Shown in pieces: positions 11,693 to 15,533 of a DNA stretch of 64,000 nt. The notes below the pieces were generated by a model. That model was given only the letters and a program-made list of their open reading frames with translations. It had not been told where the DNA came from and made no database searches. The stretch is from assembly GCA_963758155.1 (NCBI GenBank), contig CAVWUP010000018.1, positions 173,026 through 237,025 on the forward strand, in the 5' to 3' direction. The stretch comes from an uncultured delta proteobacterium. GTDB lineage: Bacteria > Myxococcota_A > Polyangia > Fen-1088. The position numbers were made by a program, and so were the translations under genes. Within the stretch, counting starts at the first letter, position 1; each line of letters opens with the position of its first letter.

Positions 11693-12052
11693 CGCGTCTC
11701 AATGCGCGGTGCAGAAGGCGCAATGACTAGTCGATTTGGCGGAATACCAAGGAGAGTCGATGGGTTGATTGATGGACGATACAGACGCGTCCAATGATCC
11801 CGCCCGAGTCATCCGTGTCAAGTTTTGAGACCAAGATTTCCCTAATAATTGCGCAGAGATTGCTTAGTCGATAGGGGATTGTCCAAGCCGCCAGCCCGAA
11901 TCGGATCTGACTATTTTCTTTCTTCTGCTGAGTATGCTGGATCACAGCAAGTTGTTTGGGAAAATCCTCTAACCATGCTTGACTAAAGGACTCTTTTGCG
12001 CGATAACGCGGATTCAAGGCAGGGCACGAGCCAGGAGAAGGAGCGGTTGCCA
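11693..12052. promoter_or_regulatory. AT-rich (~50% GC) divergent intergenic region upstream of the dcw cluster, occupying the position where mraZ is expected
   Basis: 360 bp of conspicuously low GC between the rsmH start and the Fic-like gene start. No MraZ-like ORF in any frame. Likely holds the dcw promoter(s). Confidence 0.4.
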
Positions 12053-12820
12053 ATGGAAGCTAGGTTGTTCGAGCTGGACGCCAAGATGGATTCACTCCGC
12101 GCGAAGGTCGGAGCGTTTCCGGATCGTTTGAAGAAGGACTACGAGAGCAAGCTCGATGTCTCATGGATCTTCCACGACAACGCCTTGGAAGGGGTCGTGC
12201 TTTCCTATTCGGAGCTGAAGGCCGCCATCGACCAGCGGATCATCAGCGACGTATCCCTCATCCCGATGTACGAAGAGGTGAAGAACCACAAGCTGGCGGT
12301 CGACTTCATCCGCGAAACCGCGCTGTCAAAGAAGGCCCCCGCCGTAGACCTGGACTTCATCCGCAAGCTCTACGCCATGGTCACGCCAGACGCGGTTCCC
12401 AAAGGGTGTCCCTATCGCAAGGAGAACCCGCTCCACCGCCTCTACTACCATGAGATCGTTCCGCCCGAGAAGATCGGGTACAAGATGCGCAAGCTGGCGG
12501 AATGGTTGGAAACGGATGAGTTCACACGCATGCACGCTGTCGTGCAATGCGTAAAACTTCAATTCCGCTTGCTCCAGGCGTACCCGTGGACTCGCAATTC
12601 GGGCAAGGTGGCGCGTCTGCTGACCAACTACATCCTTCTGCGGAGTGGATATGTGCCTGCCGTGGTCCACTCCATTGATCGGCAGCGCTATTACGAGGTT
12701 CTGCGCCATGAGAACGATGGCCTCATGACCCTGATCGTGGAGTCGCTGGAAAACAGCATCGACACCACGGCTAGGTTCTTCGACGAGCTTTCCGGCCTGC
12801 GCGTCCGCTGCGCGAGCTAG
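12053..12820 (+). CDS. Fic/Fido-fold protein with degenerate active-site motif
   Basis: Fic-like N-terminal IFHDNALEGVVLSYSELKAAI region. The HPFx[DE]GNGRxxR motif is replaced by YPWTRNSGKVAR, so the catalytic His is lost. ATG at 12053 has a GGAG Shine-Dalgarno. The ORF track starts further upstream at 11996. Confidence 0.55.
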   Translation: MEARLFELDAKMDSLRAKVGAFPDRLKKDYESKLDVSWIFHDNALEGVVLSYSELKAAIDQRIISDVSLIPMYEEVKNHKLAVDFIRETALSKKAPAVDLDFIRKLYAMVTPDAVPKGCPYRKENPLHRLYYHEIVPPEKIGYKMRKLAEWLETDEFTRMHAVVQCVKLQFRLLQAYPWTRNSGKVARLLTNYILLRSGYVPAVVHSIDRQRYYEVLRHENDGLMTLIVESLENSIDTTARFFDELSGLRVRCAS

Positions 12821-12893: not shown

Positions 12894-13604
12894 ATGAAGA
12901 CCAGCAAGGGCAACGATGCTCTCAAGCAGTTGGCGGGTTGCGCTGCCGCAAAATTCGTTGCCGACGGGATGGTGTGCGGGATGGGCACCGGTTCGACGGC
13001 CCGTTTTTTCATCGAAGAGGTCGGCCGCAGGATGAGGGAAGAGGGACTTCGCATCGCCGGAGTTCCCACATCCTTCCAGACGCGCCAACTGTGCCAACAA
13101 CACGGCATTCCCCTGCGCGATGCTCAGGATTGCCGGGCGATCGACCTGGCAGTCGACGGCGCAGACGAGGTCGATCCGGATCTCAACGTCACCAAGGGCG
13201 GCGGGGCGGCCCACACCATGGAGAAGCTGGTGGCCAGTATGGCCAGCCAGTTCGTGGTCATCGTGGACGAGAGCAAGCTGGTTCCCCGCCTGGGCTCCAT
13301 CGCCGACATCCCCATCGAAGTCACCGTTCCGGCCATTGGCTACGTGACCGATGTGGTGACACGTCTGGGCGGCCAGCCCCGGCTGCGCATGGGCATCAAC
13401 AAGGATGGCCCGCTGGTGACCGACAATGGCCAGCTTGTCATCGACGTGAAGTTCGGCCCCGAGATCGACTTGCGCGAGGTCGATGCGCGACTGCACCGCA
13501 CACCTGGTGTCGTCGAAACTGGGCTGTTCTTCGATATGGCCACCAAGGTTCTGGTTGGCATCTCCGACGGCATGAGCGTCCTGACCCTGGAACGCAAGAC
13601 CTGA
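12894..13604 (+). CDS. rpiA: Ribose-5-phosphate isomerase A
   Basis: 236 aa with GMGTGSTA and DGADEVD motifs and KGGGAAHTMEK, all characteristic of RpiA. Confidence 0.85.
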   Translation: MKTSKGNDALKQLAGCAAAKFVADGMVCGMGTGSTARFFIEEVGRRMREEGLRIAGVPTSFQTRQLCQQHGIPLRDAQDCRAIDLAVDGADEVDPDLNVTKGGGAAHTMEKLVASMASQFVVIVDESKLVPRLGSIADIPIEVTVPAIGYVTDVVTRLGGQPRLRMGINKDGPLVTDNGQLVIDVKFGPEIDLREVDARLHRTPGVVETGLFFDMATKVLVGISDGMSVLTLERKT

Positions 13605-13678
13605 GAACCGCAGCGGCTGCCAGCGCGGCCAATTGTTCTTGACGGCTGGCCGGCTGTCGCGCACTGTTGGGGCTGGCC

Positions 13679-13741
13679 ATGTTGTTTGCGACCACCCTGC
13701 TTCTCTCGGGACTGCTGCTTAGCAGCGCGGGAGAGGCCTGA
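13679..13741 (+). CDS. Putative Leu-rich leader peptide (MLFATTLLLSGLLLSSAGEA) for leuA attenuation
   Basis: 20-codon ORF with 7 Leu codons (TTG, CTG, CTT, CTC, CTG, CTG, CTT), located 115 bp upstream of leuA and followed by a terminator-like hairpin. Confidence 0.45.
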   Translation: MLFATTLLLSGLLLSSAGEA

Positions 13742-13766
13742 GGTAAGGCGCAGAACGACGAACCTC

Positions 13767-13801
13767 GAAACCCTCTCCCGCGGAAGCCGGAGGGGTTTTT
13801 C
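13767..13801 (+). terminator. Intrinsic-terminator-like hairpin plus U-tract (candidate leuA attenuator)
   Basis: GAAACCCTCTCCCGCGGAAGCCGGAGGGGTTTTTC forms a GC-rich stem with flanking A/U complementarity and a TTTTT run. It lies between the leader ORF and the leuA start. Confidence 0.5.
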
Positions 13802-13856
13802 GTATCTGCGAAAGGCCGTGGCCATCTCCGGCGGAAGCGGGGCCTGGAGACTGACT

Positions 13857-15533
13857 ATGACATTCGACGCTCGCAAATATCCTTCGGCGCCATCGCTGCG
13901 TCTGCCTGACCGCACCTGGCCTTCCCGCACACTGGACCACGCGCCCACCTGGTGCAGCGTGGATCTGCGCGACGGAAATCAGGCCCTGGCCGAGCCCATG
14001 GGCACGGAGCGCAAGCTGCGATTCTTTCAAACGCTGGTGCGCGTGGGCTTCAAGGAAATCGAAATGGGCTTTCCCGCGGCCTCGCAGACGGAATTCGACT
14101 TCGTGCGTGCGCTGATTGACCAGAACCACATTCCCCCTGACGTGACCATCCAGGTGTTGACCCAGGCGCGCGCGCATCTGATTGCACGCACCTTCCAGGC
14201 CCTGCAGGGTGTCCGTCGCGCCATCGTGCATGTGTACAACTCGACTTCGACGGTGCAACGGCGGGTGGTGTTCGGAATGGACCAAGCGGCCGTAAAGGAG
14301 ATTGCGGTGCGTGGCGTGCGACAGGCGCGGCAAGAAGCAGCCAAGCTGAAGGGAAGCGAGATTGTCTTGGAATACTCGCCTGAAAGTTTCACTGGCACTG
14401 AATTGGAATTTGCAGCGCAAGTGTGCGACGCCGTGGCCGAGGAATGGCGGCCCACCCGCGACCAGAAGATGATCGTGAACTTGCCCGCCACAGTCGAGAT
14501 GTCCACGCCCAACGTGTACGCCGACCAGATTGAATGGATGCACCGGCATTTGGCGCAGCGGGATTGCCTGATCATCAGCGTGCACACGCACAATGACCGC
14601 GGTTGCGCCATAGCCGCGGCCGAGCTGGCCATGCTGGCCGGTGCCGAGCGCGTGGAAGGCACCTTGTTTGGCAACGGCGAGCGCACTGGCAACGCCGACG
14701 TGGTGGCGCTGGCCATGAACCTGTTCAGTCAAGGCATCGATCCGAAACTGGACTTGTCGGACTTGCCGGCGTTGGTCGACGTTTTCCAGGCGTGCAATCA
14801 ATTGCCCGTTCCGCCGCGCCATCCCTACGCGGGTGAGCTGGTGTTCACTGCCTTTTCCGGCTCGCACCAGGACGCCATTCGCAAGGGATTGGCCGCAATG
14901 GACAAGACCGGCGCGACGACATGGGAAGTGCCGTACTTGCCGATTGATCCAGCGGACGTGGGGCGCCAATACGAGCCCTTGATTCGCATCAACAGTCAAT
15001 CCGGCAAGGGCGGCGTAGCCTACGTGCTGGAGCAGAGCCACGGGTATCGCGCGCCCAAAGGCATGGCAATGGAGTTCAGCCAGGTCGTCCAAAGATTGGC
15101 CGATGCAACTGGCAAGGAGCTGAGCGCGGAGGCCATTCTGCAGGCATTCGAACGCGAGTATCTGTCCGGTGGCCGCTTCGAGGTCGTGGACTTCACAGCG
15201 GAACACCCTCGCCAGGGCGCGTGCGTGGTGCGCGCGCGCCTGACTGACGGACAAAGGCCGCTGAGTGTAGAAGGCCAGGGCACCGGTCCCATCGACGGCT
15301 TTGTGCATGGCTTGGCCAGCGCGTTGGGTGTGGACGTCCATTTGGTCGACTACAGCGAGCACGCGCTGGGCGATGGCGCTGACGCCGAAGCCGTGGCCTA
15401 CGTTGGTCTGCGCGGCCGCGACGGAAAGATACGCTTCGGCGCCGGCCGCGACCGGGACATCGTCAAGGCGTCGCTGTCCGCAGCGTGCAAGGCGCTGGAA
15501 AGGGAACTGAGCGCGAAGGCGACGGAGAGATAG
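13857..15533 (+). CDS. leuA: 2-isopropylmalate synthase, long (actinobacterial LeuA) form
   Basis: The N-terminus RTWPSRTLDHAPTWCSVDLRDGNQAL...FKEIEMGFPAASQTEFDFVR is collinear with long-form LeuA of the Mycobacterium type. ATG at 13857 has a GGAGA Shine-Dalgarno. The ORF-track start at 13686 is a read-through extension. Confidence 0.85.
   Translation: MTFDARKYPSAPSLRLPDRTWPSRTLDHAPTWCSVDLRDGNQALAEPMGTERKLRFFQTLVRVGFKEIEMGFPAASQTEFDFVRALIDQNHIPPDVTIQVLTQARAHLIARTFQALQGVRRAIVHVYNSTSTVQRRVVFGMDQAAVKEIAVRGVRQARQEAAKLKGSEIVLEYSPESFTGTELEFAAQVCDAVAEEWRPTRDQKMIVNLPATVEMSTPNVYADQIEWMHRHLAQRDCLIISVHTHNDRGCAIAAAELAMLAGAERVEGTLFGNGERTGNADVVALAMNLFSQGIDPKLDLSDLPALVDVFQACNQLPVPPRHPYAGELVFTAFSGSHQDAIRKGLAAMDKTGATTWEVPYLPIDPADVGRQYEPLIRINSQSGKGGVAYVLEQSHGYRAPKGMAMEFSQVVQRLADATGKELSAEAILQAFEREYLSGGRFEVVDFTAEHPRQGACVVRARLTDGQRPLSVEGQGTGPIDGFVHGLASALGVDVHLVDYSEHALGDGADAEAVAYVGLRGRDGKIRFGAGRDRDIVKASLSAACKALERELSAKATER

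Follow-up and report, generated by a model that had tools for sequence, protein, structure and literature searches.

The intergenic region between rpiA and leuA (positions 13605-13856) in a 64,000-nucleotide stretch of DNA from an uncultured delta proteobacterium (contig CAVWUP010000018.1; the whole stretch is hereafter referred to as the window) very probably contains a leucine-responsive, ribosome-mediated (leader-peptide) transcription attenuator of leuA. An attenuator of this type had been put forward in an earlier reading of the same DNA (hereafter the original prediction), and all the features named there were present in the sequence. The ribosome-mediated architecture was supported by folding with masked ribosome footprints, by conservation of the leader in relatives, and by covariation of the antiterminator helix, that is, by sequence comparison and thermodynamic prediction. 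The features of the element and the gene that it would regulate are listed below; RNA segments are numbered 1 to 6 from the 5' end, and SD denotes the Shine-Dalgarno sequence.

13639-13644, plus strand: candidate -35 box (TTGACG) of the leader promoter; TTGAC was invariant in all 21 aligned leaders.
13662-13667, plus strand: -10-like hexamer (CACTGT), 11 nucleotides (nt) before the leader ATG.
13679 (ATG) to 13739-13741 (TGA), plus strand: leuL-like leader open reading frame (ORF), MLFATTLLLSGLLLSSAGEA, 20 codons, 7 of them for Leu.
13699-13737, plus strand: hairpin 1:2, segment 1 (13699-13716, Leu codons 7-13) with segment 2 (13721-13737, the end of the ORF).
13726-13782, plus strand: antiterminator 2:3, 13726-13736 with 13772-13782 (segment 3); an inner hairpin (13739-13744 with 13762-13767) holds the stop codon.
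13767-13800, plus strand: predicted intrinsic terminator 3:4, stem 13767-13781 with 13786-13799; U5 run at 13796-13800.
13786-13832, plus strand: possible helix 4:5, the terminator 3' arm GCCGGAGGGG (an SD mimic) with the anti-SD segment 13820-13832.
13817-13859, plus strand: hairpin 5:6, segment 5 (13817-13832, ..CAUCUCCGGC) with segment 6 (13842-13859).
13857-15533, plus strand: leuA, encoding long-form 2-isopropylmalate synthase, the putative regulated gene.

In the mechanism proposed here, leuA expression would be set by the supply of charged tRNA-Leu. The leader would have a promoter of its own, with transcription starting a few nt before its ATG, and it would be translated leaderless or nearly so. 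When leucine is plentiful, the ribosome would pass the Leu codons, reach the UGA and cover segment 2, the 3:4 terminator with its U5 run would form, and polymerase would stop before leuA. When leucine is scarce, the ribosome would stall on Leu codons 7-13 in segment 1, leaving segment 2 free to pair with segment 3, and leuA would be transcribed. In the terminator conformation, segment 5 would pair with the leuA SD and AUG (segment 6), and transcripts leaking past the terminator would also be poorly translated; in the antiterminated conformation, the freed segment 4 would pair with segment 5 and the ribosome-binding site would be exposed.

The leader ORF described in the original prediction, with its 20 codons, seven Leu residues and two LLL runs between rpiA and leuA, was confirmed in every respect. 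The Leu codons are located at 13682 (TTG), 13697-13705 (CTG CTT CTC), and 13712-13720 (CTG CTG CTT), the last six forming the two runs. Among the 397 ATG-initiated ORFs of 12-40 amino acids (aa) in the six frames of the window, this ORF alone contained two LLL runs, which places it beyond chance expectation. CTT made up 2/7 of the leader Leu codons, compared with 8.7% of the Leu codons in the long ORFs of the window, a bias towards rarer codons that would be in keeping with sharper stalling.

The GC-rich hairpin followed by T5 that had been reported downstream of the leader ORF was found at 13767-13800. It begins 25 nt past the leader stop codon, and 56 nt separate the end of its U run from the leuA ATG at 13857. 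Folded alone, the terminator hairpin (13767-13799) had a predicted energy of -18.9 kcal/mol (z = -2.6); the corresponding values were -26.0 kcal/mol (z = -4.1) for hairpin 1:2 and -32.3 kcal/mol (z = -4.2) for the antiterminator including its inner hairpin. Segment 2 (GCGGGAGAGG) lies inside the end of the leader ORF, and its partner can be either segment 1 or the 5' arm of the terminator.

Ribosome positions were modelled by masking the nucleotides of the footprint, followed by minimum-energy folding of the transcript. The naked RNA of the window folded as hairpin 1:2 plus the terminator. With Leu codons 7-13 in the A site, the 2:3 antiterminator was formed and the terminator was lost, and with the ribosome at Leu14 or the stop codon, where it covers segment 2, the terminator returned. 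The masked folds thus reproduced the classical logic of attenuation, and the mutually exclusive antiterminator, named in the original prediction as a point to be checked, was identified as helix 2:3, competing with 3:4. In the leaders of six related loci (L085, L086, L089, L091, L100, and L102), the antiterminator likewise took over when the ribosome was placed at some or all of the Leu codons.

Relatives were sampled through a LeuA protein search, and contigs were fetched for homologues of 91, 90, 87, 78, 77, 67, 67, 65, and 64% identity. The 78% homologue was represented by two contigs of one lineage, and the total was counted as eight independent relatives; one further LeuA homologue (82% identity) was left out of the DNA comparison. 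A Leu-rich leader ORF was located directly upstream of leuA in 8/8 of these relatives. The leader peptides included MSFAKTLLLSGLLLSSAGEA, MLFATTTLLSGLLLSSAGEA, MLFATNLLLSGLLLSSAGEL, MKFATTLLLSGLLLSSAGEA, MRVVASSTSLLGLLLRSAGEV, MDSFAASRQLPPELLLLSSTGEV, and MMNASSLLLLSLLLSGAGED, as well as MSALTVLNLHLGLLLISGAGEA from locus L092 (2395-2500), which belongs to a metagenome-assembled genome (MAG) whose LeuA is labelled Holophaga sp. (Acidobacteriota). All of these leaders end in L(S/R/I)(S/G)(A/T)GE(A/V/D/L)-stop and keep the complementarity between segments 2 and 3. A U run was present in all relatives examined individually except L092, and at the terminator relatives carried GGAGGGGG or GGAGAGGG, which gives a continuous stem. 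None of the fetched relatives had rpiA upstream; the upstream neighbours differed, and in five loci the neighbour was divergent, so that the hairpin cannot be the terminator of a neighbouring gene and the element belongs to leuA.

The N-terminal half of the peptide carried non-synonymous changes and also varied in length (whole peptide, 20-23 aa). The Leu codons stayed in frame and varied synonymously (CTG, CTC, CTT), and the conserved C-terminal residues (..AGEA) overlap RNA segment 2. Taken together, this is the signature of a regulatory leader and not of a functional peptide. The final Leu codon before segment 2 (the end of the 13697-13720 run in the window) was CTT in all Polyangia-type leaders; the Leu run of L092 also ended with CTT, which MAFFT placed in another column. 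The occurrence of the same leader in the Holophaga-labelled MAG had not been mentioned in the original prediction. In L092, leuA is directly followed by ilvB, ilvN, and ilvC (downstream genes to 6689).

In addition, metagenome contigs were scanned with the DNA pattern GGAGAGGNCTGAG N20-45 ANCCCTCTCCNGY, in which only the segment 2 core, the stop codon, and the segment 3 core were fixed. Thereby 43 loci were obtained, of which 31 were leuA leaders, mostly from close relatives, and 12 were not. In the 31 leaders, Leu runs were in frame wherever the flanking DNA sufficed, and leuA was the next gene in those examined; two more diverged peptides, MIRPVVTLLLLDGLLSSAGEV and MFAPASHLLLLGLLLSGAGED, were among them. 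The Leu-rich upstream ORF (uORF), whose conservation had been left for checking, was therefore kept in the eight relatives found through LeuA and in 31 further metagenome loci. The other 12 matches (L094, L095, L097, L101, L105, L110, L113, L118, L122, L125, L130, and L134) were discarded on inspection. Most of them were nested palindromic repeats, GGGAGAGG(A/G)CTGAGGTGAGGG ... CCCTCACCC-AACCCTCTCCCGC, in unrelated contexts. They resemble REP-like intergenic repeats and scored 17-29 bits with a covariance model built from the Polyangia-type leaders (hereafter R1). With R1, no second copy of the leader was detected in the 64-kb window or in the related contigs, where the other matches were only self-matches on the opposite strand.

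Base-pair changes were counted on a 21-sequence alignment (A1). For the antiterminator and its inner hairpin, nine pairs had changed on both sides and 95% of cells were paired; none of 500 shuffles reached the observed values, and slid controls were 39-59% paired. Three of the compensatory pairs fell in the core 2:3 helix at positions that the search pattern left unfixed on both sides, with changes such as G-C to A-U in L090 and G-C to U-A and A-U in L091 and L104. The 2:3 helix was also predicted independently by RNAalifold. As for the 1:2 and 3:4 helices, 88 and 94% of cells were paired, respectively; both were nearly invariant, so that their support comes from conservation and energy.

The sequence upstream of the leader ORF suggests a dedicated promoter. 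Following the TTGAC motif, the 17-nt spacer varied freely among the aligned leaders, and the hexamer at this spacing was CACNNT, CAAGAT, GACAAT, or TATCGT, 7-12 nt before the start codon (20 leaders). We infer that transcription begins 0-5 nt upstream of the leader start codon. No conserved SD was detected between the -10-like hexamer and the leader start codon in the aligned leaders, and a scan of the window with a strict sigma-70 consensus called no promoter site at the leader. Because the hexamer is only 7-12 nt from the start codon and an SD is lacking, the leader ORF is probably leaderless or near-leaderless. A promoter so near the leader ATG had not been mentioned in the original prediction.

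A second hairpin, 5:6, which would hide the leuA SD, was likewise absent from the original prediction. Segment 6 holds the SD (GGAGA, 13846-13850) and the start codon (13857-13859). In the window alone the hairpin was unexceptional (-17.8 kcal/mol, z = -1.1). Across relatives, seven pairs had changed on both sides, which 0/500 shuffles reached, and 85% of cells were paired vs. 24-45% in slid controls. By partition-function folding, the probability that the leuA SD of the window is unpaired was 0.72 with a stalled ribosome vs. 0.22 with the ribosome at the stop codon. The mean values for 27 leaders were 0.65 (stalled), 0.10 (at stop), and 0.11 (naked), and the SD was more accessible with a stalled ribosome than with one at the stop codon in 26 of these 27 leaders. 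Helix 4:5, which could relay the state of the terminator to this hairpin, had a predicted energy of -25.4 kcal/mol (z = -3.1), and duplexes of -13 to -25 kcal/mol were predicted in 14/14 leaders tested.

We tentatively suggest, at somewhat less than even chances, that the leader is chained to an SD-sequestering switch that adds translational control. A slightly bolder and correspondingly more doubtful extension is a six-segment relay, in which one stall on a leaderless Leu leader would flip 1:2 + 3:4 + 5:6 to 2:3 + 4:5 and thereby unite trp-type and ermC-type attenuation. In L092, segments 2-6 are kept and the U run is absent, and control in that lineage may act mainly at translation. Read on the minus strand, 13761-13861 (segments 3-6 in reverse complement) matched a covariance model built from segments 1-4 with 24 bits; this is because segments 1, 3, and 5 are CUCUCC-type copies that alternate with the GGAGAG-type copies of segments 2, 4, and 6.

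With regard to the flanking genes, the upstream neighbour lies outside the element:

12894-13604, plus strand: rpiA, matched by NCBIfam RpiA equivalogs above their cut-off.

The description of leuA as long-form was borne out by its matches to NCBIfam PRK03739 (838 bits) and to TIGR00970 (leuA_yeast; 725 bits, above its cut-off). The gene appears to be monocistronic in the window, as the next ORF in the ORF map is convergent. The statement that the genome is Myxococcales-like was supported only indirectly, by two LeuA homologues with the source names Polyangia and Polyangiaceae. At 13615-13630, 11 nt past the rpiA stop codon and just upstream of the leader -35 box, there is a small G+C-rich hairpin with T-rich sequence after it; it is a possible rpiA terminator. 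Upstream of rpiA, an ORF of 274 aa (11996-12820, plus strand) was weakly matched by the XopAC/AvrAC (Fic-type) effector family, with a score well short of the cut-off (E = 4.5e-4).

Several observations weigh against the proposed attenuator and have to be set beside the evidence above. All of its support is of one kind, namely sequence and thermodynamic prediction. The 3:4 hairpin was not called in the window by a simple consensus terminator scan, because its stem is bulged and its inner stem interrupted, and the U run of the window is only 5 nt long. In L092, the U run is lacking and the hairpin contains G-U pairs. The naked RNAs of L092, L100, and L104 already preferred the antiterminator, and hairpin 1:2 was missing from their minimum-energy folds; in L090, the antiterminator was not the minimum-energy fold in any state. 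In L102 (1044-1157), the Leu run is 1 nt shorter (CTGCTCTTAGC), so that the Leu frame misses the TGA and runs on towards leuA, which may reflect an error in the assembly or a genuine variant. Little covariation was found in 1:2 and 3:4, and the covariation of helix 4:5 was not significant (91% of cells paired). Finally, most of the aligned sequences were close relatives, many of them retrieved with a pattern in which most of segments 2 and 3 is fixed. The shuffle statistics therefore make the sequences look more independent than they are, and they are supportive values, not probabilities.

Part of these observations would also fit control that is purely translational or Rho-dependent, with a hairpin and U5 run that form no efficient intrinsic terminator. 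Stalling would then open the SD structure, in an ermC-like manner, or expose or occlude a Rho site. The conserved and covarying 5:6 hairpin, the predicted dependence of SD accessibility on ribosome position, the short U run missed by the simple scan, and L092, with its leader, segments 2-6, and SD hairpin but no U run, are all in line with such control. We nevertheless regard it as improbable, since a G+C-rich stem with U4-U5, preceded by a matching A tract, was present in all Polyangia-like leaders examined, stands at the canonical place of a terminator, and has a 5' arm for which the antiterminator exactly competes. Moreover, translational and transcriptional mechanisms are compatible, and leader-peptide attenuation as proposed here already includes a translational layer. 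Marginally less probable still is that a protein or small molecule binds the conserved RNA, with the Leu-rich ORF incidental or secondary and stalling not the sensor. Mutations of Leu codons in the Streptomyces leuA leader did not behave as classical attenuation predicts, and a protein ligand was suggested (Seliverstov et al., 2005; PMC1262725). Much of the leader is conserved at the nucleotide level, in its 3' half even at third codon positions, which indicates that RNA constraints dominate there, and R1 weakly matched actinobacterial leuA leaders at the right place (22.3 bits in L077 and 21.6 bits in L065). Against a ligand-binding RNA, the Leu runs remain in frame with start and stop codons, whereas neighbouring nucleotides and peptide length differ between leaders, the stop codon always directly follows segment 2, and no conserved unpaired nucleotides that would hint at a ligand pocket were found outside the helices in the aligned leaders. 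A complete terminator/antiterminator pair is present here, unlike in the actinobacterial LEU element described in that study, and the masked-ribosome folds gave the expected switch. A T-box or riboswitch was rejected, as no Rfam T-box or riboswitch model matched 13400-14100.

The leader ORF could also encode a small peptide with a function of its own, such as a membrane peptide, as the peptide is hydrophobic and its C-terminal half conserved. This is very improbable: the stretch that codes for the conserved C-terminal residues is also RNA segment 2, the pairing partner of segments 1 and 3, only the synonymously varying Leu codons are kept while the N-terminal half changes in residues and length, and the ORF is always directly upstream of leuA, overlapping the switch. 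The least probable reading is coincidence, that is, a chance small ORF in a GC-rich spacer together with an ordinary rpiA terminator. The element does lie downstream of rpiA on the same strand, and GC-rich genomes yield many spurious ORFs. However, the leader travels with leuA in loci in which rpiA is never upstream and five neighbours are divergent, a conserved promoter separates rpiA from the leader, rpiA has a hairpin of its own at 13615-13630, and no other of the 397 small ORFs has two LLL runs. The rpiA-terminator reading was rejected, being effectively refuted by the comparative data.

Leader-peptide attenuation is a textbook mechanism; the sequence family found here is not in Rfam, and no description of it was found. 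A cmscan search of 13400-14100 against Rfam 15 (E<=10) returned only one spurious viral match on the minus strand and no match to Leu_leader (RF00512), and the actinobacterial, alpha-, and beta-proteobacterial leuA loci had no Rfam match either. No attenuator of leuA from myxobacteria, deltaproteobacteria, or acidobacteria was found in the literature searched; the broad survey of Lopatovskaya et al. (2010) may cover such genomes, so that a prior description is possible. Rfam contains no curated leader-peptide attenuator for Myxococcota or Acidobacteriota.

The element shares its plan with enterobacterial leuL (RF00512) and with the trp, his, thr, and phe attenuators, namely a short ORF with codons for the end product and four overlapping segments that pair as 1:2, 2:3, and 3:4. 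As in leuL-type leaders, an intrinsic terminator precedes the first biosynthetic gene, the position of the stop codon lets a terminating ribosome cover segment 2, and rarer Leu codons are used. In contrast to leuL, which precedes a short-form leuABCD operon, the element stands before a single long-form leuA and shows no similarity to it in sequence or by covariance model. It also has no leader SD, begins 7-12 nt from the -10 hexamer, and carries an additional SD-sequestering hairpin. By its predicted logic it works like the RF00512 family, to which it does not belong. Attenuators for branched-chain amino acids were reportedly predicted in Proteobacteria by Vitreschak et al. in 2004.

Leu-rich leaders were also surveyed at distant leuA loci. 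In a scan of genome contigs with LeuA, the matches listed comprised only proteins of 51-59% identity from other phyla, and these were used for the survey. Among the matches listed, 52 of the 80 distant loci had a Leu-rich uORF in front of long-form leuA, vs. 4-8 of 80 in control windows, which agrees with the published attenuation of leuA in Corynebacterium. Examples were ..SLLLLGLTRGCRVR in Rhizobiales and ..GGLLLLLLRPART in Betaproteobacteria. The segment 2/3 pattern was found at none of the distant leuA loci, and the alpha- and beta-proteobacterial ones gave no R1 match at E<1 (best, L008, E = 3.7). The alpha- and beta-proteobacterial leaders represent different leader sequence families.

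In Corynebacterium glutamicum, leuA is attenuated with a leuL peptide MTSRANLLLLRRGGSQRS (Neshat et al., 2014, as quoted in PMC8709942), and the synthesis of Corynebacterium leader peptides was reported to proceed without a ribosome-binding site (Morbach, 2000, as quoted in the same paper), which parallels the probable leaderless start here. As far as that account goes, a ribosome-mediated attenuator lies there, as here, directly upstream of a monocistronic long-form leuA, and in both MTSRANLLLLRRGGSQRS and ..GLLLSSAGEA of the window a run of Leu leads into basic or small residues and Gly. The organisms belong to different phyla (Actinomycetota vs. Polyangia-like and Acidobacteria-like), and the comparison here is one of peptide and layout.

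The position of a leader ribosome or the fold of an upstream RNA decides whether a downstream SD is hidden in ermC/cat translational attenuation and in the hairpin of Bacillus subtilis trpE, respectively. The proposed second layer resembles these systems in that the ribosome or the choice of fold would decide the hiding of the SD. It would differ from them in being chained to a terminator in a six-segment relay and in that the supply of tRNA-Leu would drive it, in place of an antibiotic or TRAP.

The known system most like the present one is the actinobacterial LEU element, which comprises a Leu-run uORF upstream of long-form leuA, a hairpin directly after the Leu run that holds the stop codon, and a structure involving the leuA SD (PMC1262725). 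It was described as having no obvious terminator and a pseudoknot whose base stem pairs the Leu run with the SD; protein binding was proposed and the mechanism was left undecided (PMC1262725). The element of the window shares with it the same long-form leuA, a Leu-run uORF directly upstream, the stop-codon hairpin, and the SD structure. It differs in having a terminator/antiterminator pair and in that the SD is predicted to pair with a separate anti-SD segment (13817-13832) and not with the Leu run. Leaders at three actinobacterial loci, L061 (2764-2850), L065 (2799-2893), and L077 (2779-2870), encode MRTLLLLSRRGGA, ..MRLLLRSRGEA, and MLRGLLLSRRGEGL, and may be the published LEU element. Their Leu runs, the codons after them, and the hairpins that span the stop are similar to those of the Polyangia-type leader. 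They read CTGCTTCTTAGC(C/A)GC...GGCGAGG-stop followed by CCTCGCCGCGG, compared with CTGCTGCTTAGCAGCGCGGGAGAGG-stop followed by CCCTCTCCCGC in the window. At the correct upstream position, R1 scored 22.3 bits in L077, 21.6 bits in L065, and 12.2 bits in L061; these scores overlap the 17-29 bits of the unrelated GGGAGAGG palindromes, and homology to the LEU element is therefore suggestive only.

By its sequence logic, leader-peptide attenuation of leucine biosynthesis would operate in Polyangia-like Myxococcota and in an Acidobacteriota-labelled MAG. The compact conserved motif (alignment A2, model R1) could enter RNA family databases and serve to annotate leuA regulation in soil and peat metagenomes. 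The probable leaderless start, the conserved SD-sequestering hairpin, and the resemblance to the LEU element set it apart from a routine case and lead to a testable model in which transcriptional and translational attenuation are chained. The element may also help to explain the LEU element, whose mechanism was left undecided in 2005 (PMC1262725). The six-segment relay could, again tentatively, be the complete form of that actinobacterial element, in which case an old leader would have been inherited or transferred together with long-form leuA across phyla.

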